From positions 1 through 64,000 of the forward strand of contig NIVC01002559.1 in the NCBI GenBank assembly GCA_002269645.1: a stretch of 64,000 nt of DNA, read 5' to 3'. This DNA comes from Macrostomum lignano. Its lineage: Eukaryota. The notes beneath the pieces were generated by a model. That model was not told where the DNA came from, ran no database searches, and was given only the letters and a program-made list of their open reading frames with translations. Position numbers and translations under genes: made by a program. Positions 45,399-58,437 of this stretch are shown piece after piece (the stretch's first letter is position 1; each line of letters begins with the position of its first letter).

Positions 45399-47202
45399 TC
45401 ACACATACATGCAGTGACTAGCCAAGTAAAGGCTGTTTGCTCTGTAAGTGCGACGCAATGAACCCCCCCATCCCAAATTTGAGCGTAAAACAAAGTGCTG
45501 GTGATGAGTAACAGCCTGGCCCCCGTGAACTTGCTGCTGTAGCCGTCGCACCCGTTCAGCATCACGCTCTAGCAGGTCCAGCAGAAGGTAGAAGTTCAGT
45601 GGTTTCTGTCCACGCTTGTTGAGTTGACCATGCCAGGCTTCTACGTCGTTGTTGGTCCTCTTGTACTGCTCGAAGACGCAGATAGCATCACGGTCCCAGA
45701 CGGGATGCTGCAGCCAGGTAGTGCGCACATACTCGGCTAGCTGTAGGAGTAGCTCATTACCTATTGCCAGTTGAATGCAGGCTGCCAGATCATCAAGCAT
45801 ACAAGTGGACGGCAAGCATGGAATCGAGAGAAGCATGCGTACAACCAACTTAACTGCTGGAACAGTGGAATACTGCACCTGAAGGCCAAGGTTTTGGACA
45901 CGCCTGAAGACAGCTTGACAATAATGGAAGAAGCAGCCGCGAACTTGCGCACCTGGATATACCAGCCGAATTGCTTGCCAAGCAGCAGCTTCAAAGTCAC
46001 AGGTGAACTTGATTGGCGCATTACCTGTTGACTCCCAAAGGCAACGAAAGCAGGCTTGATAATCAGCTTGAGCCTTACCGGTTACCGGACATCAAAAAGA
46101 AGGCAAGTGGTACCAGCCTTTCCTGCCCATCAAAGCGAATCGCGCCGTGTACACTGTAAAGCTGTTTGAAAGGTGCCTTGACAATGCTAAAAGTTCCGTC
46201 GCACTTCAAGATTCGTCGGGTTGATAATAGTTCTCGCTGAGTTGTCGTCATGAAGACGAAGTGTCGCCCGTTTGTCTCAGGAACTGTCACATCCTGCAAA
46301 TGAAACTGGGCAGGTACATGTCTAGGATCAACTTGGAAATGTACGTCAACAGGTTCCATAGGGCGATCTTTTTTGCGACTGTAATTAGCATTGCGACTCA
46401 ATGACTCAATACTAAGCACCTCCTGCACTTCAGGTGAAAATTCTCTTAACTTCTCCTCCGCGATAATTCTAGCAGAGGTAAACAACATGCGCTTTGCTCC
46501 CTCCTTTACCTCCTTTGCTGCCTTTCTCTTCTGAGCTGGCTGATCAACTGGATCGCACGTGTGCGGAGCAAGGGCTTCTATGGTTTCATCAGCACGGCGG
46601 ACTGCGGAGCCATGACAGTGCAGTGATAAACGCTTAGTGCAGCGATAGTACGTGTTGCCATTTCGCCGCGTTTTTTCATCCATCAGATGGCCAAGGTCTC
46701 GTTGGGCATACTGCACTAGAAGGTCTTTTCCGTGACTGCATCCTGCACCTGTAAGAATCTCAAAGGGCTGGGGAGGTGGGCTGCGGGGCGGTGCAAGCTC
46801 TGCTGGAGGAATTTGAATGGATTCTTCCAGAGCTGGATCAGGGTCATTGAAATCTGGATACTGGTAAAGAAAATTTTCTGCTTGTGCTGGAATCAAATGC
46901 ACTGGTTCTGGATTTTCAGCAGGCAGAGGAACAGCCGCTGGTCCAGAATTCGGGGCTTGTACATGTACCACTGCAGCATCTGCAGCTTGAGACACTGCTA
47001 AGTTACCTGCAGGAGCCCGTCTATTGCATTGATTGCAAAGCCAGAAAAACTCACCGACATTTCTCATTGCAGAATACTGATCGATTGTGACGCGACTATC
47101 ACATGCACGGTGCTGCCAATTCAAGCATTGAGAACACTCAATTGCTTCTTGTCCATCGCAAACTGGCTGCAGACAGACTACACATGGATATGCGCCTGCC
47201 AT
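45399..47202 (-). pseudogene. PHD finger + FLYWCH/WRKY-like + MULE transposase, frameshifted
   Basis: N-terminal C4HC3 PHD (CVVC..ECSQCLNWQHRAC..WLCNQC); YYRCTKR..C..HTC zinc domain; KCDGTF..FKQLYSVHG. After the frameshift at 46075-46088 it continues CDFEAAAWQAIRLVYPGAQVRGCFFHYCQAVFRRVQNLGL..RTNNDVEAWH. Confidence 0.9.
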
Positions 47203-47528
47203 TTTGTATCTAAGTGCTTAGACTGCTTCAGTGAATGAGACAGATGAATTCTGAACAGGGCATGAAATTTACCCAGTTTTTATCCCTTTAAACAAGTAAA
47301 TTAGTCTGCATTAGTCTGCAAATATGTTTACACCTCTTAGGGGCCTACTATAAGTAGGAAATTAAGACTCGTAACCATTTTTGTCTTTAGCCCTGCAATA
47401 AACTAATAAAATTTTGACTTCCTGTCTAAACCCCCCCATTGCAACCCCACATCTCCCCACCCGAAGCTATCCAATAGTAAACCAGCTGTCATTTTCCGTG
47501 ACCCCCACCCCAGCTGTGGCCATCTTGG

Positions 47529-48090
47529 TGTAGTAGGGCATTATTTTAGAAACGGAAATTTTGCAGGTTTAAATATGCTTTTACCCTACTATCAGTAGTT
47601 TCAACCCGGGGAAATAATTAGAGCAGGGGTAAGTGGATAAAATCGGGGTTCCTTTAGAAATACAGAGCAGTTGGGCTCTTGGGAAAGAAAAGCTTCGTTG
47701 GAGTGTCTTCTCCTGTTTAACTTAGAGAGTTCACGCAGAAGTGGTAAGGAAGGGAAATATAAGGGTTAGGCTTGCACAGAGGAGTCTTGCCTCTAAAACT
47801 GGGAGTCTTGCCCAAGCACTATAACGGGAATAAGGAAATAAGGGAATTAATGTAAGAGCAAAACAAATAACCTTTTGTACGCATTCTCTTTATTATTAAA
47901 AATTTCCAACTGTTAACTATAATCTTTGGTGTCCTGACTCACTTCTTTAATCTAAAGTACTAGAATTAGGGAAAGCAGGAAACCTGGTGGCAGCGAAACT
48001 ACCGAAATCTCAACCAGTATATCCACTTAAATCCTTAATAGCAAATAAGAAAACCAGTAGCCTAAACCGCGAGGTACCACGACTTGTCCA
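47529..48090 (+). repeat. 5' LTR (562 bp)
   Basis: TGTAGTAGGGC..GACTTGTCCA. By eye it differs from the 3' LTR at two positions, both G in this copy and A in the other. Confidence 0.95.
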
Positions 48091-48092
48091 AT

Positions 48093-48102
48093 TGGTGGCA
48101 GC
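48093..48102 (+). promoter_or_regulatory. Primer-binding site TGGTGGCAGC (tRNA-Leu-type)
   Basis: Starts 2 nt after the LTR CA and is complementary to a tRNA 3' end ..GCTGCCACCA. Confidence 0.8.
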
Positions 48103-48546
48103 TTAGAGGATTAGAATACCCGAGAAACGCATACATTAGACTGGAGCTTAGGATTAGTAAGGGATTAACGGATTAACTCCTATGTGCTGAAATTAGAACT
48201 AAAACTAACACAAATTTACTAATTAGGTTCTAAATTAGAGAATTAATGTACATAGTCAGTTGATCTAAGATTGTCTGATCTCAGATTAACGGATTAACGG
48301 ATTAGGAACGGATTAACGCTCCTGAAAGGAATTCTAACTTAGTTTCTTCGCTAGAAGATTAGTAAGGTCTCAATTAAGACCAGAAGTTAAGGCGGAAGTA
48401 ATAAAATTAGAGTCACTGCTGTTTTATTAACTAAAGTCTTACCATTAGGCAATTTAGCAGCTAAATTCGGAGTCTTGCCAATTTACTGACCAAAATTATT
48501 AAACCAGAAGCGTTAATTCTAGAATCCAACCTAAATTTAAACTAAT

Positions 48547-49575
48547 ATGGAAGCTAATGACGTAGTAGAAGCACTGGCTGAAGGCATTAGAGACAGGCTA
48601 GACATTAGGAAACATATTAGGATCCAAAAGTACACGCCTAATCAGGATATAGACGTATGGATTCAGGATTTTGAGCAGAGGTGTATCGCAGATGAGATAC
48701 CCCCAGCTGAGTGGAAGAATGAGTTGCTGTCTAACCTGGATGTCCAGTCAGCGTTTGCTATAGTAACAAGGCTAAACTTAGACCCTAATCTAGCATACGC
48801 AGAATTTAAGGATAGACTAATCGAGCGATTCACGCATGTAGGTAGTGCTCAAGAAGCTAGGGAAGAGTTCCGTAGTAGGTTCCAGTGCAAAACTGAAAGC
48901 ACTGATGACTACGCTGAAAAGCTGACAGAGCTAGCATGCAGGGCGTTTCCCCATCTAACTAACGATCAGAGACAGGAAGAGGTGGTGGAACAATTTATCA
49001 GAGGTGTTAGGGTTGCCCCAGAGACTAGAGAGAAGCTACTACTAGCTCAGGTAAACTCGCTTCAAGAGACACGTCGAGTCTTGCGACGTATCGAAATGGC
49101 GTACGCTATGTCTCGCCGAGGTAGAGACCCGCAGCAGTGTAAGGCAACTGGAGGAGACGAAGCTGAGAATAGCTTGAAGGAATTAGTCCGCAAACAGGGT
49201 GAGGCGCTAGAAAACCAGCAGAAGGTGCTTCAGGAGTTACTCCGACACCACCAAAGTGTTGAGCAAAAGGTCAAGCAGCAGCAGCCGTCAGGACAGCAGC
49301 AGCAAGGCCAGAATCAGCAGAGGCGTCCCCCAGTGAAGTGCAACAGGTGTGGCAAGCTAGGTCACTTAGCTAAGAATTGTAGACAGCCACATCCTCAGAA
49401 CCAGCTTAGGTACCCGGCTCAGCAGCAGATGCAGTATCAGCAGTCGCAGTATCAGCAGCCGATGTACCCACAGCAGCAGATGCAGCCGCAGTATCCGCAG
49501 CCGCATTACCCTCAGCAGCAGAATTCGGGAAACGGAGTAGACGGAAGCGTCGGAGGCAACGCTTTCCAGCAGTAG
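48547..49575 (+). CDS. gag: Gag with CCHC zinc knuckle and Q-rich tail
   Basis: 342 aa ORF with a retrotransposon capsid-like helical region and the knuckle CNRCGKLGHLAKNC. Confidence 0.93.
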   Translation: MEANDVVEALAEGIRDRLDIRKHIRIQKYTPNQDIDVWIQDFEQRCIADEIPPAEWKNELLSNLDVQSAFAIVTRLNLDPNLAYAEFKDRLIERFTHVGSAQEAREEFRSRFQCKTESTDDYAEKLTELACRAFPHLTNDQRQEEVVEQFIRGVRVAPETREKLLLAQVNSLQETRRVLRRIEMAYAMSRRGRDPQQCKATGGDEAENSLKELVRKQGEALENQQKVLQELLRHHQSVEQKVKQQQPSGQQQQGQNQQRRPPVKCNRCGKLGHLAKNCRQPHPQNQLRYPAQQQMQYQQSQYQQPMYPQQQMQPQYPQPHYPQQQNSGNGVDGSVGGNAFQQ

Positions 49576-51233
49576 ATCCCTCACAGTCTGTAGCCTCACA
49601 ACCTGTAAATAGCAGCGATACTTTTTCTGTAAATAGTGAATTGAATTCTTCAGTGTATAACAGTAGGCATGCGCAAACATTTAATCAATCATTTAATCAA
49701 CCAAACATTTATTCTCAGCACTTTTCAAACGCACCACAACAGCAACCTTATTCTAGCAAGCAGCAGCTAAAACAACCAAAATTAACTGAACAAACTAAAA
49801 AGCAAAGTTACGATCCGTACATCACTGGCAGCATTTTAAATAAGGAAATAGTTTATCTATTAGACACTGGTAGTAATAGAAATATCTTAGGACGCGAAAC
49901 CTGGAAGCATCTTTTCACTGGCAAGAATAGGCATCTAATTAAGCATTGGGACAATAGAATTGTTTCTTTTATGGAAGAGCCTATTCCAATTAAGGGTTTC
50001 GTAGTTATTAAGGCAACATTTGGCGATTTCAGAGAAGAAGTTGAGTTTCTCTTATGTGACGCAGATGTAGACAATGTAATAGGTGTGACGTTTGTCCAAA
50101 ATTATTGTACTACTATTGACTTCGATGCAGGAATGCTGACCATGAAACCAGGAACTAGAATTCCGCTTCGATCAACCAGAGCTAAGCCTCAGGTTAGGAG
50201 AATATATGTCGCAGAAAAGACGACAGTTCCAGCCAATAGTTCAGGATTAGTCAAGGTCAGATTAGCAGCAGGTAGTGAAACTAATTTCGGAGTGCCATCA
50301 GTTGTTGAGCCACTCAGATCAGGATTAAAGACTAGAACAGAGAAGGTAACCGTAGTGCCAAGTTTAGTAACTCTAAGACAAGGGGAAGCTTATTTAGAAG
50401 TAATTAACACCAGTTCACAGGAAGCTAGAGTACCAGCATCAGCATTAGTTGGGATGGCTAAACCACTCTTAGCTAGCGAGCTTAACTATCTGAAGGAACA
50501 GCCAGAAGAGGAGCAGAATAAGAGCACGCAGTCTTGCGGAAGCAGAGAAAAGATCAGTCAGGTACAGGAGAAGTCAGAAGACTGGATTAGTGAAATCAAC
50601 ATAGGAACTGAACTGACTCAGGAACAAAGACAAAAGGTGATCGAGGTCGTCAAGGAACATTCAGCAGCTTTCTCGCAGCACGAGTTAGACTTAGGCAGAA
50701 CGCATTTAGTCACACATGAAATTATCTTGAAGGATAACAACCCAGTTCAGGTACCAGCTAGGAAGATTCCACCTCATTGGATTAAGGAGGTAGATGAGCA
50801 GTTAGATCTCATGTTGGCTAGAGGCATCATTAGGCCTAGTTACTCGCAGTACTCGACTCCATTAGTCATAGTACCTAAGAAAGACGGTTCGCTGAGATTA
50901 GTTAACGACTATCGAGCACTAAATAATAAATCGGAGTACTTTCCGTATCCAATAACTAATATCAATGAAACATTTTCATGTCTCCATGGAGCCAGTCAAT
51001 TTTCTACGTTAGATCTATTTTCGGGATATTATCAGATAGCTCTTAGGGAAGAAGATAAGTGCAAGACTAGCTTTCCAACTTTACATCGAGGCTCGTTTGA
51101 GTACGAAGTATTGCCAATGGGATTGCAAGGAGCCCCAGGAACTTTTCAAAGGTGCATGAACTTAGTTCTTAAGGACATTGCACAGAAGTTCGCCATAGCT
51201 TACTTAGACGATGTAATAGTTTATTATACTTAG
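49527..51233 (+). CDS. pol: Pol, 5' part (aspartic protease + RT up to YLDD), entered by a -1 frameshift
   Basis: The -1 frame is open from 49410. Motifs: YLLDTGS, LRLVNDYRALN, FSTLDLFSGYYQI, LPMGLQGAPGTFQ, AYLDDVIVY. Ends at a premature TAG at 51231-51233. Confidence 0.92.
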   Translation, partial: GKRSRRKRRRQRFPAVDPSQSVASQPVNSSDTFSVNSELNSSVYNSRHAQTFNQSFNQPNIYSQHFSNAPQQQPYSSKQQLKQPKLTEQTKKQSYDPYITGSILNKEIVYLLDTGSNRNILGRETWKHLFTGKNRHLIKHWDNRIVSFMEEPIPIKGFVVIKATFGDFREEVEFLLCDADVDNVIGVTFVQNYCTTIDFDAGMLTMKPGTRIPLRSTRAKPQVRRIYVAEKTTVPANSSGLVKVRLAAGSETNFGVPSVVEPLRSGLKTRTEKVTVVPSLVTLRQGEAYLEVINTSSQEARVPASALVGMAKPLLASELNYLKEQPEEEQNKSTQSCGSREKISQVQEKSEDWISEINIGTELTQEQRQKVIEVVKEHSAAFSQHELDLGRTHLVTHEIILKDNNPVQVPARKIPPHWIKEVDEQLDLMLARGIIRPSYSQYSTPLVIVPKKDGSLRLVNDYRALNNKSEYFPYPITNINETFSCLHGASQFSTLDLFSGYYQIALREEDKCKTSFPTLHRGSFEYEVLPMGLQGAPGTFQRCMNLVLKDIAQKFAIAYLDDVIVYYT

Positions 51234-51254
51234 ACATTATACTTATACTTAGAC

Positions 51255-53987
51255 ATGAAACTAAAGGCTAAGAAATGTCACCTTTTCAAATCAGAATTAC
51301 AATATCTAGGACACGTCATAGGCAAAGCAGGAATTAAGAGAGATGCGTCGAAATTAGAAGCAATTAGGAACTGGCCGAAACCTAAATCTGTGACAGAGCT
51401 TCGAAGTTTTCTCGGACTCTGTAATTACTATAGAAAATTCGTTAGAGATTTTGCCGAGGTAGCAGCACCACTCTGTGAGTTAACGAAGAAGAACATCAAG
51501 TGTATCCAGGACAATTGGACCAGGATTCATGATGAATGCTTCGAATTGTTGAAGGAACGGATGTGTTCCGAAGAAGTGCTTGTTTACCCAGAGTTCAATA
51601 CAGACCCCCAAGTTTATTTTGTGTTAGACACTGATGCATCAGATGTCAGAATTGGGGCGGTCTTGAATCAAGTTCAGAGCGACGGCATTGAAAGGCCGAT
51701 CGCGTATTATAGTCGGAAAATGAGGCAGTCAGAAACTAGATATCCAATTACGAGGAAGGAGCTTCTAGCGATTGTTGACTCGCTGAAGTACTTTAGATTT
51801 TACCTCGTAGGAAAACATTTTAAGGTGCGCACTGATCACAATGCCCTAACCTGGTTGCTTCGCCAAACCGAACAGACAGGCATTTTAGGTCGTTGGATCG
51901 AAAGACTTTCCGAATTTGATTTTGAGATAGAACATAGGAGTGGCCCTAAACATGTGAATGCTGACGCTCTATCCAGGATCCCTGATCCTCAACCGGAAGA
52001 GATGTCCCCACATGCCAGGTCGCTAAGCTGTAGGGCAACTGTGAATACAGACCCAGCATCAGCTTTTACTGTCAGCTCAGGCAATTCCGCGTTCGCTGAA
52101 ACCTGTAGCTCGAGCAGTGGAGTTCCGTCATGCTGTTCGTCACAAGACACTGTCACGAACCGACACAATACTCCGATCTTTAGTAGCAGTAGGCTAGACA
52201 ATAGACAGGGACAGGAGCCTAAAACCGGAAATCCGCCTGCATGCAATGCCCTGCTCAGTGACTATCTCCGTAGCCCAGTTCGCCGTGACCAATTGATCGC
52301 AGCACAGCTGGCCGATCCGGCGGTAGGCTTTGTTAGAAATTTAATTGAGAATGACTCGCCTAAACCGACATTTCAAGAACGACTAGAGTTAACCCACGAC
52401 TGTAGGAACCTCTTAGGTTACTACGAGTTGCTCAGAATTGAGGACGGCGTACTCAAAGCAAACTTATCTATGGGGCAGACTGATCCAAAGGTAGTGTTGC
52501 CCAAGTCTCTGGATAGTGAAGTCTTTCACCAATTCCATGATTCACCGTTAGCGGGACACCTAGGTCGAGATAAAACTTATCAGAGAATTAAAATTCGATT
52601 TTGGAGGCCAGGATTAGCAACAGCAGTTGAACGCTACGTAGCCAAATGTAAATCATGCCTAGAAAGCAAAACTAGACGAAGAATTAAGGCACCAATTCAG
52701 AACTACCCTGTAGTCGAACCGTTCGGTAGATTGCACATAGATCTAATAGGACCTATTGGCCAAACCAGCAAATCAGGAAACAAATATGTACTTTCAGTCA
52801 TAGACAGCACTAGCAAATTTCCATTCGCATTCGCAATTAGGAATCAGAAGGCTAAAACAGTTATCAAAATTCTACAAGAACGAGTTTTCGCTGATTTCGG
52901 GATTCCACAATGGATTCACACAGACCAGGGAATACAGTTCACTGGTAGGGCCTTTAAGAAATTTTTAGACCTCTATGGCATTAGACACACTCGAACCACT
53001 AGTTATCAACCGCAGAGCAATGGCTTAGTAGAAAACCTTAATAAGCAGATTAAATCAATTCTCACCTGTTTACTGGAGAAGGAGCATTCCAACTGGGACG
53101 TTCTGTTGCCAGGTTGCATAACAGCTCTGAGAACCAGCACGCACACTGCCACAGGATTTAGTCCGCACTATTTAGTCTTTGGACGAGAGGCTAGAGTGCC
53201 CTGTGACAATGAGCTGAACGAGCCAAAGCAGTTTCAGGACCTGCCATCTTATGTCCAGGATCATCAGCAGAATCTGCAGGAAGGCCAAGAACTAGCAAGA
53301 AAGAGATTAAAATTAGTGCAACAAAACCGTGAGCAAGAGTACTCTAATAAGCCTAAGCCAAAAATATTGCCTGTAGGAAGCTTAGTATTTATCAATAATC
53401 CAGTAATTGCTAACACAGAGGCTAACAAATTTCACAGAAAACAGAGGGCAGTTTACGAAATTGTAGAACAATTATCAGAAGTAGTCTTTAAGATCAGACC
53501 AGTCACCAAAAATAAGAAGGCTAGGAAGGAAGAACTTATTATGCATAGGGATAATTTAATGAAGGTACCACAAGCAGATTATCAGGAAGAAGAAGCTAGT
53601 ACTAAGCCAAAAGAGCAGAGGAAACAATACAATAGGGAACAGTTAGCCAATAGCCAACCGAATGTGTACAATGACTCAGAAAGTGAAGACGAGTACGAAG
53701 ACGCAGTGCAGTTTATGCCAGTGCAGCATCAAAATAATGTGCAGTCAGTGCCAATTCAACAAGTGCAGCATCAAAATAATAATCAGAATAATTTAGTAGG
53801 TGTACAAGGAGTTATGCCAGTACAATTAAGTAATAACAATAATTTAGGGATTAATTTAGAAGCTAGGCCAGCTAGAGAGCGTCATGCTCCAGATAGGTTA
53901 ACGGTCAGGCCAAATCAGAAAAGTTATGTACAGAGGATAGCGGCGTTGTTTAACCCACTCAACTTCTTTCAGCCCAATTCTCAATAA
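51255..53987 (+). CDS. pol: Pol, 3' part (RT thumb, RNase H, integrase), same frame as the 5' part
   Basis: LQYLGHVI, LRSFLGLCNYYRKFV, LDTDAS, VRTDHNAL, HHCC zinc domain and DDE core (HIDLIGP / HTDQG / NGLVENLNK). Confidence 0.93.
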   Translation: MKLKAKKCHLFKSELQYLGHVIGKAGIKRDASKLEAIRNWPKPKSVTELRSFLGLCNYYRKFVRDFAEVAAPLCELTKKNIKCIQDNWTRIHDECFELLKERMCSEEVLVYPEFNTDPQVYFVLDTDASDVRIGAVLNQVQSDGIERPIAYYSRKMRQSETRYPITRKELLAIVDSLKYFRFYLVGKHFKVRTDHNALTWLLRQTEQTGILGRWIERLSEFDFEIEHRSGPKHVNADALSRIPDPQPEEMSPHARSLSCRATVNTDPASAFTVSSGNSAFAETCSSSSGVPSCCSSQDTVTNRHNTPIFSSSRLDNRQGQEPKTGNPPACNALLSDYLRSPVRRDQLIAAQLADPAVGFVRNLIENDSPKPTFQERLELTHDCRNLLGYYELLRIEDGVLKANLSMGQTDPKVVLPKSLDSEVFHQFHDSPLAGHLGRDKTYQRIKIRFWRPGLATAVERYVAKCKSCLESKTRRRIKAPIQNYPVVEPFGRLHIDLIGPIGQTSKSGNKYVLSVIDSTSKFPFAFAIRNQKAKTVIKILQERVFADFGIPQWIHTDQGIQFTGRAFKKFLDLYGIRHTRTTSYQPQSNGLVENLNKQIKSILTCLLEKEHSNWDVLLPGCITALRTSTHTATGFSPHYLVFGREARVPCDNELNEPKQFQDLPSYVQDHQQNLQEGQELARKRLKLVQQNREQEYSNKPKPKILPVGSLVFINNPVIANTEANKFHRKQRAVYEIVEQLSEVVFKIRPVTKNKKARKEELIMHRDNLMKVPQADYQEEEASTKPKEQRKQYNREQLANSQPNVYNDSESEDEYEDAVQFMPVQHQNNVQSVPIQQVQHQNNNQNNLVGVQGVMPVQLSNNNNLGINLEARPARERHAPDRLTVRPNQKSYVQRIAALFNPLNFFQPNSQ

Positions 53988-53989
53988 TC

Positions 53990-54736
53990 ATGGCCGACGC
54001 CCCGCTCCGCGTCTATCCGACAAAGAGAATATATGGCCAGCGCAGAACTAGCCAAGAAGAAAATGAGCCCCCGCAAGTTAGGGCAGTGCAACTGGCCAAG
54101 CGCAGAGAAGAGCGTAAGAAGCCGAGATTGGACCAGCAAAAAGAGGAAGAAGGAAGACTGGCCATAGATGTCGATCTAGAAGAAGTAGAGAGGGCGACTA
54201 AGCAAAAGGAGGAAGAGTTCAGAGACGAGATGGCGCGATTTATGGAGGAGATACGGCAACACGAGGAAGGGGTAGAGCCCATAGACGAGCAGGAGGAGAC
54301 GGCCGCAGACGAAACGAAGTGCCAACCAGAGCAACGTCAGCCCGAGCAGTGCCACACAACGCGAGGCCAGCCTGAGCCTGCGCCGAGCCCGCTCATTGAT
54401 TATGCCTCACTGCTCAGGGTAGACCTGGGTGACACGCCGGCCTTTGAAGAGACCAGCACGGAGCGTCCGGACAGCCCCGGGACACAGGCGCGGAAATTCC
54501 GCAAGTGCCGTCGCGCTCTTAAGCGGTCTATCCTGGCCACAGGAAGAACAGGGCACTTCGAGGCTCAGCTACCGGAAGCGTGCGACCATTTCCTGGCCAC
54601 GTCGACGGCAGAAGAGGCAGTCAGGTGTTTTGAAATCGCCTGCTCATACTGCCTACAGTACGCAGAAGGAAGGGCTCGGGGACCAATCAGCATGAGGGCG
54701 ACCAATCAGCATGAGGGCGACCACCGAGCAGCTTGA
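53990..54736 (+). CDS. Third ORF of the gypsy element, 248 aa, not Env-like
   Basis: ATG 2 nt after the pol TAA, inside the LTR-bounded unit. GC-rich, with no signal peptide or transmembrane segment visible. Confidence 0.75.
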   Translation: MADAPLRVYPTKRIYGQRRTSQEENEPPQVRAVQLAKRREERKKPRLDQQKEEEGRLAIDVDLEEVERATKQKEEEFRDEMARFMEEIRQHEEGVEPIDEQEETAADETKCQPEQRQPEQCHTTRGQPEPAPSPLIDYASLLRVDLGDTPAFEETSTERPDSPGTQARKFRKCRRALKRSILATGRTGHFEAQLPEACDHFLATSTAEEAVRCFEIACSYCLQYAEGRARGPISMRATNQHEGDHRAA

Positions 54737-55344
54737 GTTCATCGCCAGTCGATTCGACCCTGCTAATCAGCTGATTCCGGTAAATGGACTACTTTAATTG
54801 TCCACGCAAAATACCCTAAATCTCCGGCCAGTCAATTAAGCAAAACTAGGGAACTTAATAACTCTTCCAAAGCAACATAATTACACATGCTCGATGCCAT
54901 CAAATATTTTTTATCATTACCATCTTTTGGAGTAAGAACTTGCCAATTATTTTACCGCTTTTTTTTGCACCGCATTTTTTTAGATGTTGTATACACTTGC
55001 CATTATTTGCGTTCTTTTGTTCAACTTACTCAACATTTAGTGTAACTAGTAAGCATGTCATTAATTCCTCTTATCATACTTAAAAATTAATCCAGGTCTT
55101 AATAATACAATGCCATACGCATATTTCAACTTGTTCAACCACTTAATATCATTAAGGTTTTACGACTATGCATACCATTAACTTTTCCACTTGTCATACG
55201 TGTAGACTTAATAATCCTTGCTCACTACATTGTTTTATATTCAGTCATCGCTGATAAGCGCACTAATACTTATTACGTAACTAAAATTTTGTTAATAAAT
55301 ATAATCATCAATGTACAAAAGGGGGTTTTGCACATTTTTGTAGC

Positions 55345-55354
55345 GAGGGGGAGG
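55345..55354 (+). promoter_or_regulatory. Polypurine tract
   Basis: GAGGGGGAGG directly abuts the TG of the 3' LTR. Confidence 0.9.
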
Positions 55355-55916
55355 TGTAGTAGGGCATTATTTTAGAAACGGAAATTTTACAGGTTTAAAT
55401 ATGCTTTTACCCTACTATCAGTAGTTTCAACCCGGGGAAATAATTAGAGCAGGGGTAAGTGGATAAAATCGGGGTTCCTTTAGAAATACAGAGCAGTTGG
55501 GCTCTTGGGAAAGAAAAGCTTCGTTGGAGTGTCTTCTCCTGTTTAACTTAGAGAGTTCACGCAGAAGTGGTAAGGAAGGGAAATATAAGGGTTAGGCTTG
55601 CACAGAGGAGTCTTGCCTCTAAAACTGGGAGTCTTGCCCAAGCACTATAACGGGAATAAGGAAATAAAGGAATTAATGTAAGAGCAAAACAAATAACCTT
55701 TTGTACGCATTCTCTTTATTATTAAAAATTTCCAACTGTTAACTATAATCTTTGGTGTCCTGACTCACTTCTTTAATCTAAAGTACTAGAATTAGGGAAA
55801 GCAGGAAACCTGGTGGCAGCGAAACTACCGAAATCTCAACCAGTATATCCACTTAAATCCTTAATAGCAAATAAGAAAACCAGTAGCCTAAACCGCGAGG
55901 TACCACGACTTGTCCA
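55355..55916 (+). repeat. 3' LTR (562 bp)
   Basis: Near-identical to 47529-48090. Confidence 0.95.
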
Positions 55917-56601: not shown

Positions 56602-58437
56602 ATACAATACAATAATACAATAAATACAATGGCCACCGGCCACAAGTGGTCAGGAAAGGGGGGGACATTGTCAAAAAGCACGCTTAGCTGCGCAGTCTCT
56701 GATGAAGGTAGCGCCATTGATCTGATCAGGCGCCCTGGCGTCTTCTGTCAGACAGTCGACGAACCTCCGGGTCCGCGCCTGCCCCCGCCGGAACGGGCCC
56801 TGCTGCGTGTACAGCAAGACCTCCTGCAGCGGCTCCGGGCAGTAGGACTCGGCGCGAATGACGTGGCCCGCCAGCTTCAGGCGGCGCTGTCGCAGGGTCA
56901 CGCTGGGAGGGCTCAGCTTGGCCCGCTGGTAGAGAGCCTGGTTGGTGACGTGTTCGGCGTGACGGTGCACGCTGAAGGCAGCGCGCAGCAGGCTGGAGTG
57001 CGCCGCGTCCAGCTGGCGCTCCAGCACATCCGTCATGGTCCAGGTCTCGGCGTTGTAGAAGAGCACCGTTTCCACCACCGCCTGGAACAGTCTGGTTCTC
57101 AGCTGGTCTGGCAGGGCGTCGCTTTGGAGCACGATGCGCACTGAGCGGAAAGCCGCCCACGCAAGCCCTCTGCGACGCCGCAGGTCCTCCTGGACGCTGG
57201 GCACGAGACCACCAAGGTACCGGAACTGCTCACATCGGGGGAGCGGTGCTGCCGTTGCGCTGTCCATGCTGGGAAGGCGGATGACCGCTGGCAGATCTGC
57301 TGGCACAGTCAGGACCTCCGTCTTCTTGGCGTTGATCTTAAGGCCAACCTTCGCAGCGGCAGCAGCTAGGCCGTCGAGGAGGCGTTGAGCACCAGCAGCA
57401 GTGGATGCCAGCAGGGCGAGGTCATCAGCATATCCGAGGACTGCCAGCCGCTTCTCCGGGTGCCGGCTGCTCGTTCGCCTGCATAGGATGTAGCCGTCCG
57501 AGTTGTCCGGTAGTCCTGTCCGCAGCACCCAGTCCAAGATGAGGATGAACAGGAAGGGAGCGAGGGTGTCTCCTTGCAGGACTTCGGATGAGGTGGTGAA
57601 GAAGTCGGAAAGGCCGTCAGGTGTGATCACAGCAGCGTGCGTGTCGTGGTAGAGCGCCATCACTGCTGCAATCAGTTTCTCTGGCACGTTGTAGGCTCGG
57701 AGAACTAGTGGAATCACGCCTCGAGCCACCGAGTCGAAAGCCTTCAGGAAGTCGATGAACAGACAGAAAAGGTCCGACTGGCGAATGCGCGATTCCTCGA
57801 TAATTCTCCGGAGCGCCAGAATTTGCGTGACTGTACCACGTCGTGGCCGGAACCCATTCTGCTCGTACCGCAGGTAAGGGTCCAGCACTGGCTGCAAGCG
57901 CGACAGTAGCAGCTTGTTGTGCAGCTTGGCGGCACAGGACATCAGGGAGATGCCCCGATGTTCTTCAATCTTGTTGGTGCCCGGCTTCTTGGGGATTCCG
58001 ACGATATGTGCTCGGGTCCACTCCGGAGGTGCGACGCCAGTATCGAGAACGTTGTTGATCACCCTGGCGATCTCCTGGGCGACCTTGGGCAGTCTGAGCA
58101 CCTCGTTGGGAACTTCGTCGGGACCCGTTGCCTTGCCGCCTGGGATCTTCTTGGCGAGCTGACAAACATCGATTGCGGTCACATGGCCGGTACAGAAATG
58201 ATGCGGAGGCGGCAGTGGCGTGTCAGGGGGCAGCGCCAGCACATCAGGGAGCGCAGGTGGTGGCGCATTCACTATGCTAGCAAAAAAAGTCCCGCAGGCT
58301 GTTCTTGCGCTCATCCGGCGTGTCCCCAACCAGGTTGAGCGCCGTGCGTTGCTTCCTGCCAGTGAGGGTGTTGATGGCAGTCCACACGGTGCCGCTTTTC
58401 CTGTCCGGGGCGGCGGAGGTGACGGCGCGGATGGCTA
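56602..58437 (-). mobile_element. 5'-truncated non-LTR retrotransposon (RTE-like) with an (ATTGT)n tail and a 9 bp TSD
   Basis: CACTACACA at 56593-56601 and 58438-58446; microsatellite tail at ~56602-56630; inserted into the right TIR of the outer element. Confidence 0.9.
56671..58435 (-). pseudogene. LINE ORF2 reverse transcriptase fragment (endonuclease lost; one +1 frameshift near 58282-58288)
   Basis: KATGPDEV, RGISLMS, EQNGFRPRRG, FIDFLKAFDSV, LQGDTLAPFLF, LGYADDLALL, FRYLGG, RRLKLAGHVIR. The upstream frame ..WTAINTLTGRK..ERKNSLRDFF joins if one T of a T7 run is removed. Confidence 0.92.

Follow-up and report, generated by a model that had tools for sequence, protein, structure and literature searches.

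A third gene downstream of pol in a Ty3/Gypsy retrotransposon of Macrostomum lignano and its probable expression by spliced-leader trans-splicing

Background

The Gypsy element Cer1 of Caenorhabditis elegans carries, between pol and its 3' long terminal repeat (LTR), an orphan gene other than env. Its product CERV is described as nuclear and is produced from a subgenomic, cis-spliced RNA that can carry the spliced leader (SL) SL1 at its 5' site (PMC3315495, PMC10309623). Cer1 CERV is the closest precedent for the gene analyzed here, a third open reading frame (ORF3) occupying the same slot in a Ty3/Gypsy LTR retrotransposon of Macrostomum lignano. The element is contained in a stretch of 64,000 nucleotides (NCBI GenBank assembly GCA_002269645.1, contig NIVC01002559.1, positions 1 to 64,000 of the forward strand), hereafter referred to as the window. 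In Cer1 the SL site is located near the 5' end and gag exons are cis-spliced into the 3' ORF, whereas in M. lignano the SL appears directly before a free-standing ORF3 downstream of pol. Unlike CERV, ORF3 possesses its own conserved ATG, and no gag-to-ORF3 joint is present among those listed. The sequence and fold searches performed with ORF3 gave no link to CERV, which was itself not directly aligned.

Post-pol third ORFs expressed from a subgenomic RNA, by means of either an acceptor or an internal promoter, are also described for the env genes of errantiviruses, retroviruses and the Tor elements of Oikopleura (PMC4402516). ORF3 shares this layout, but it is not a membrane glycoprotein and its observed 5' exon originates from a host small nuclear RNA rather than from the LTR. 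The operons of M. lignano that are resolved by trans-splicing employ the same 35-nt SL and the same YTNCAG acceptor motif in order to release a downstream cistron (PMC8629364); here, in contrast, the acceptor lies inside the last codons of the upstream gene and the unit is a mobile element. Since these codons belong to pol, splicing at this site would come at the expense of the gag-pol message. The LTR elements of bdelloid rotifers display family-specific, modular non-Env ORF3s in the env slot, which are recognisable enzymes or transmembrane (TM) or coiled-coil proteins and for which the accessible text notes no use of an SL (PMC5408684). The M. lignano ORF3 domain differs from them in being devoid of any known relative. 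Proteins that are encoded by elements and counter silencing or serve as activators, such as plant VANC and foamy virus Tas, are nuclear accessory factors that diverge rapidly and act in favour of the element encoding them; their resemblance to ORF3 would be a functional analogy only, without any relationship in sequence or fold.

In schistosomes, fusions between SL fragments and retrotransposons are described (PMC5832876, PMC12582326). The main text of a paper from 2025 that deals with the LTR elements of M. lignano contains none of the terms 'ORF', 'trans-splic' and 'spliced leader' (PMC12801592), and no report of SL addition directly before a post-pol ORF was found in mostly open literature, taken without supplements. 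SL borrowing would constitute a third route for the expression of LTR-element genes downstream of pol, beside cis-splicing and internal promoters. ORF3 also provides a new orphan domain that selection has maintained throughout a clade of retrotransposons, and the swapping of its alleles is indicative of a conflict with the host. Its function is testable, because transgenesis exists in M. lignano and one third of the genes of this organism are SL-spliced (PMC8629364). ORF3 is a real and selected gene, a variant of the subgenomic accessory gene, and is partly explained by the analysis reported below.

Evidence for spliced-leader addition ahead of ORF3

An earlier note made from the sequence alone had reported a 248-aa ORF starting 2 nt after the pol stop, preceded by a branch-like TTAAC, a pyrimidine run and a CAG, and had compared this layout to that of spliced env messages. 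The frame is confirmed: the pol stop codon occupies 53985-53987, the ORF3 ATG is located at 53990 and the 248 codons extend to 54736 (53990..54736, plus strand). The splicing signals are present as well. A branch-like hexamer, a pyrimidine tract and a TTNCAG acceptor (53949..53972, plus strand; TTAAC at 53950, CAG at 53970-53972) overlap the last pol codons, and the internal region of 7.2 kb contains a single occurrence of the complete pattern, as compared to 12 of YTNCAG alone.

Contigs from four probable RNA runs belonging to four studies (X1, X5, X6 and X10) were aligned to the element. Run X5 displays a 499-nt contig that covers 53972-54450 and is preceded by 20 unaligned letters. Together with the shared G, these letters are those found at the 3' end of the SL published for M. 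lignano. A contig of run X1, originating from another study, begins at the same base and carries 22 letters in front, which are not displayed. Both contigs continue unbroken for 334-479 nt into ORF3. The acceptor announced in the earlier note is used exactly at its CAG by an RNA-type contig and the joint into 53973 exists in probable RNA, but the partner exon is the host SL and not an exon of the element. The splice observed is therefore trans-splicing rather than env-style cis-splicing from the LTR, and no cis joint into 53973 is found among the joints listed for the subfamily of the window.

The YTNCAG motif and the branch-like hexamer are found at 33 of the 41 distinct ORF3 places inspected; two more possess the motif without the exact hexamer and at six it was not found. 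The SL 20-mer displays 61 exact matches in genome G000. Of the 28 matches inspected, ten represent SL RNA genes with a GTAAG donor immediately behind the leader; the remaining ones look like retroposed leaders. The 20-mer is absent from the window and from all 72 contigs with ORF3 matches, and a genomic SL relic was consequently rejected as the origin of the join. Probable RNA thus contains the host SL linked to a 3' splice site, and this SL is encoded elsewhere, not in cis. The evidence comes from few contigs and is thin but specific, and expression of ORF3 through SL trans-splicing is regarded as very probable.

Upon SL addition, the terminal AUG of the leader would open a 5-codon upstream ORF (uORF) in the pol frame (53973..53987, plus strand), separated by 2 nt from the ATG of ORF3. 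Such a uORF of 3-5 codons, ending 2-4 nt before the ATG, would be opened in 10 of 10 copies, the distant subfamily displaying 3 codons and a gap of 4 nt.

With regard to the genomic SL copies, Rfam does not recognise them. Those lacking a donor, several of them located within repeats, suggest retroposed SL-headed RNAs (L051-L058, L067, L069-L074 and L076-L078).

Conservation and structure of the ORF3 protein

The length given in the earlier note is correct for the window copy but results from a truncation. A 19-nt tandem duplication (54681..54718, plus strand) shifts the frame, so that the last 8 residues are non-homologous, and a further stop is present in the out-of-frame remainder; the 12 intact sister proteins measure 240-285 aa. 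ORF3 is more GC-rich than pol (0.58 versus 0.41-0.43), as stated previously. Comparison of the protein to its own genome returned 114 matches from 122 candidates, many of them open, with identities down to about 40%; these figures represent matches and not copy numbers. Among the 12 intact copies, dN/dS ranges from 0.07 to 0.32 for the whole ORF and from 0.05 to 0.41 for the C-terminal domain, for those pairs with a computable dS, many of the 66 pairs being saturated. ORF3 is under purifying selection, and neutral evolution, considered in the earlier note, is largely refuted.

The highest hydropathy over 19 residues amounts to 0.65 across 13 ORF3 copies. The protein is therefore devoid of a TM segment or signal peptide, as originally described, and Pfam reports no match at its cut-off, in particular no Env family or other known transposable element domain. 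A conserved N-terminal motif block, MAxAPxRxYPxKxIY..ENExP..R (53990..54082, plus strand), is predicted to be disordered. It is followed by the basic patch KRREERKKPR (54098..54127, plus strand), a candidate nuclear localisation signal (NLS); the patch is indeed present, but its place is not fixed, as it is found at residues 18-23 in the distant subfamily. A hydrophobic core LAIDV between acidic residues (54158..54172, plus strand) constitutes a candidate SUMO-interacting motif (SIM). It fits the expected hydrophobic core and acidic flanks in a predicted disordered region, and a like core is present in 13 of 13 aligned copies; VIDLT is the SIM core of PIAS (PMC3901395). Several contigs contain inverted pairs of SUMO genes that consist of a single exon (L104-L109).

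The AlphaFold model of an intact sister copy predicts a five-helix C-terminal domain (pLDDT 92, 10 sequences) and a single acidic amphipathic helix at residues 63-93, with disorder elsewhere. The acidic helix, modelled on sister copy L002, corresponds to 54176..54268 (plus strand). The window copy retains the first four fifths of the C-terminal domain (54476..54712, plus strand), the remainder being lost to the frameshift; the first helix is basic, with 9 K/R in 25 residues. The Cys/His-containing C-terminus described in the earlier note is not a conserved feature: only C198 is invariant, a second Cys is nearly so and His varies. A metal site is therefore not supported. From the short basic and SUMO-type motifs we infer that ORF3 may be a nuclear accessory factor.

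Homology searches left the family unrecognised, in agreement with the earlier note. No homologue was detected with a single ORF3 protein among 689 candidates, nor with a merged domain profile compared to longer proteins, a search that is weak as evidence. The domain profile returned 7 matches among 1.84 billion representatives, all of which were rejected as partial and unrelated, being mostly repeat proteins (4 WD40). Metagenome and viral contigs contained no relative, and Pfam and PDB sequences yielded nothing significant. The best VIA fold matches, to the AppA four-helix bundle (Z 6.1, rmsd 3.0, 78 aligned) and to a cullin repeat (Z 6.0, rmsd 4.8, 107 aligned), were rejected because such scores are below the meaningful level for helical bundles; the missing fold match is no proof of a new fold. 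The capture of a host domain, also suggested previously, is unsupported, as no host-like relative emerged from the homology searches.

Exchange of ORF3 types on a common gag-pol backbone

Copies whose gag-pol is 96-99% identical to that of the window display ORF3 domain regions ranging from 98% down to 54% identity. The 3' untranslated region (UTR) follows the ORF3 type and the switch point is located at the end of pol. In the four pairs out of nine for which both regions were measurable, the four-fold sites that differ amount to 0, 2, 1 and 1 of 50 in the integrase, versus 13/32, 12/17, 19/23 and 15/21 in ORF3. ORF3 types that are 42-96% identical are carried on integrase cores identical at 130/130 residues. 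Old ORF3 alleles are therefore carried on a recently homogenised backbone, and from this sequence pattern we infer that recombination would be responsible for the cassette exchange. The four-fold pattern is the one expected under host conflict.

Sister families

An integrase tree was built with 33 rows, 29 of which were chosen from 114 unnamed matches, other M. lignano families being left out. The family of the window, P0009 and P0010 form one long-branch group (100/100), in which the family and P0009 are joined at 95/89. In the P0009 group, an ORF of 290-500 aa is preceded by a promoter-like spacer measuring a few hundred bases, which in several members contains CCAAT- and TATA-like boxes; in most members no acceptor is found nearby. 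The C-terminal domain of P0009, which has 142 matches in the genome, matches the ORF3 domain by profile (probability 72%, E 3.5e-5, 81 columns). Since P0009 keeps a related domain mostly without a nearby acceptor, the job of this domain need not depend on splicing. The P0009-type group (L087-L103) also displays acidic amphipathic N-termini, which we take to resemble activation domains.

In the P0010 family (L079-L086), an ORF3-like region is in frame with pol (integrase). All 8 loci possess a YTNCAG at a distance of 6-7 nt upstream of a Met, and five of the eight contain VIDLT, the canonical SIM type, or CIDLT. Compared to the ORF3 domain, the P0010 domain is not significant against A2 and weak against A3; homology of the two domains is at most suggestive.

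Proposed mechanism and alternative explanations

The explanation that we tentatively prefer is that of an SL-spliced third gene whose protein would be a nuclear adaptor that counters silencing of the element or enhances its transcription; we consider this function slightly more apt to be wrong than right. The SL would replace all upstream sequence, either gag-pol or a short leader originating from an internal promoter, and each transcript would therefore serve as genomic RNA or as ORF3 mRNA. ORF3 would be translated after the tiny uORF. The protein would then enter the nucleus and bind nucleic acid or chromatin via its basic helical domain, while the acidic helix and the SUMO-binding-like motif would contact host factors. 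A more extended proposal is doubtful: the Gypsy clade would be an SL-resolved two-cistron operon expressing a new family of SUMO-engaging counter-silencing proteins, with ancient alleles swappable on a shared gag-pol, and within the clade the gene would have changed its mode of expression among fusion to pol, an internal promoter and trans-splicing of the SL.

A number of observations weigh against the SL-spliced nuclear adaptor. The four runs were guessed to be RNA, none being recorded as such, and provide contigs rather than reads; only these probable RNA runs were compared to the window acceptor. SL letters are visible in a single contig, and no SL join is found among the entries listed for X6 and X10 (63 loose ends and 630 pieces are hidden, and X10 lacks depth over most of ORF3). 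The contigs that begin at the acceptor show 6-7 mismatches to the window copy, and a sibling copy is therefore their source; contigs of other variants cross the acceptor unspliced. In the distant subfamily (L024), no SL end is found among those listed in the four runs, 26 loose ends being hidden. A contig of X6 carries 257 unseen letters attached to the acceptor of this subfamily (L024:1486), a length too great for the SL; this join may represent a cis-splice or a rearranged copy. Concerning the protein, motifs resembling a SIM or an NLS are short and of frequent occurrence, and a SIM-like core is found in few members of the sister P0009 group. No ORF3 homologue was found outside the M. lignano genome in the searches made, and Foldseek gave no match to the domain at E<=0.001. 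Finally, LTR identity does not track the ORF3 type, and therefore no co-evolving promoter target is evident.

The same SL-spliced gene could instead encode a Rev- or CERV-like protector or exporter of unspliced genomic RNA, which is unlikely but the strongest of the alternatives. CERV occupies the same slot in Cer1, is nuclear and is described as required for genomic RNA export (PMC10309623, PMC3315495). The M. lignano element must somehow skip its own strong acceptor, and the nine K/R residues of the first helix would suit such a role. Against this explanation, the sister group retains the domain although most of its members lack a nearby acceptor, and no gag-ORF3 cis joint is listed. Moreover, no strongly structured response element emerged, as 120-nt windows examined in 6 copies display no shared stable fold, the 3 windows with z <= -2 being located at different places.

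A distinctly unlikely alternative assigns ORF3 another post-transcriptional role, in which the protein would block small-RNA silencing, limit copy number or travel with the particle or integration complex. An orphan helical adaptor with disordered arms suits many roles, and the location of the P0010 region in the integrase frame could tie the protein to the integration complex; the homology of the P0010 domain is, however, weak. The presence of ORF3 types as diverse as those described above on identical integrase cores argues against a tight specific contact with Gag or Pol.

The last substantial alternative concerns the route and not the function. The main ORF3 message would be produced by env-style cis-splicing or from an internal promoter, SL addition being a minor side use of the acceptor. 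Flatworm acceptors often serve both cis- and trans-splicing (PMC12582326), Tor elements produce env by either route (PMC4402516), each element contains 7-12 upstream GT[AG]AG sites, and the 257-nt unseen join of the distant subfamily would be accommodated. This alternative is nevertheless quite improbable: contigs of two studies start at 53973, to which no cis joint is listed, and 9 of 10 copies lack a TATA box in the 1.5 kb upstream. The proposal that ORF3 is neutral sequence, an Env or a fragment captured from a host gene, prompted by its env position and its GC content above that of pol, is largely refuted and hardly credible given the absence of a hydrophobic segment, the all-helical soluble model, the lack of a Pfam match or host-like relative, and a low dN/dS with saturated dS.

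Antisense RNA

A canonical intron on the minus strand (49603..53065), with a GTGAG donor at 53065 and a TTTACAG acceptor at 49603, is spliced out in contigs of three studies, the joint being present in runs X1, X6 and X10. A deletion derivative was rejected as the origin of the 49600-53064 joint, as it was not seen in at least 39 genomic matches and its ends are minus-strand splice signals. The flanking exons contain no frame over 80 aa. The antisense transcript is possibly a small-RNA precursor or a regulatory antisense RNA, and a spliced antisense RNA of the family is consistent with silencing pressure.

Architecture of the element and other features of the window

The host of ORF3 is a full-length Ty3/Gypsy element displaying TG..CA LTRs, a target duplication, a primer binding site and a polypurine tract (PPT). 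The 5' LTR (47529..48090, plus strand) and the 3' LTR (55355..55916, plus strand) measure 562 bp and differ by 2 mismatches, and a 4-bp target duplication, TTGG, surrounds the element. The primer binding site (48093..48106, plus strand) begins with TGG, 2 nt past the LTR. The domain order is that of Gypsy: gag (48547..49575, plus strand), with Retrotrans_gag and a CCHC knuckle, precedes a pol frame (49410..53987, plus strand) composed of protease (PR), reverse transcriptase (RT), RNase H and integrase, the protease match being weak (E 0.075). The nearest named pol proteins are those of Macrostomum lignano. Within 51224-51251, the RT part of the pol frame is disrupted by an in-frame stop (51231-51233) and by a shortening of the stretch that follows the YxDD motif. 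With RT broken and ORF3 truncated, the window copy is defective; errors of assembly may account for some of the frame breaks observed here and in other copies.

A candidate poly(A) signal for ORF3, AATAAA (55294..55299, plus strand), is followed by a short hairpin and a U-run right before the PPT (55342..55354, plus strand). It is found about 60 nt upstream of the 3' LTR, at the same position, in 11 of 12 copies. If used, it would produce an ORF3 message without the R region and the PPT. The succession of AATAAA, short hairpin and U-run (55294-55341) is conserved in every subfamily except one. The 3' UTR displays no tandem motif arrays or structured element common to the copies, and that of L047 is interrupted by a GC-rich insertion of about 570 nt.

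Fragments of a MULE transposase with weak PHD and FLYWCH matches adjoin the 5' LTR on the minus strand (45399-47217), and a 587-aa frame located on the minus strand at 56671-58434 reads like a non-LTR reverse transcriptase. Copies L032, L033 and L038 sit in or beside TAAC/GTTA short repeats, and a target preference is possible.

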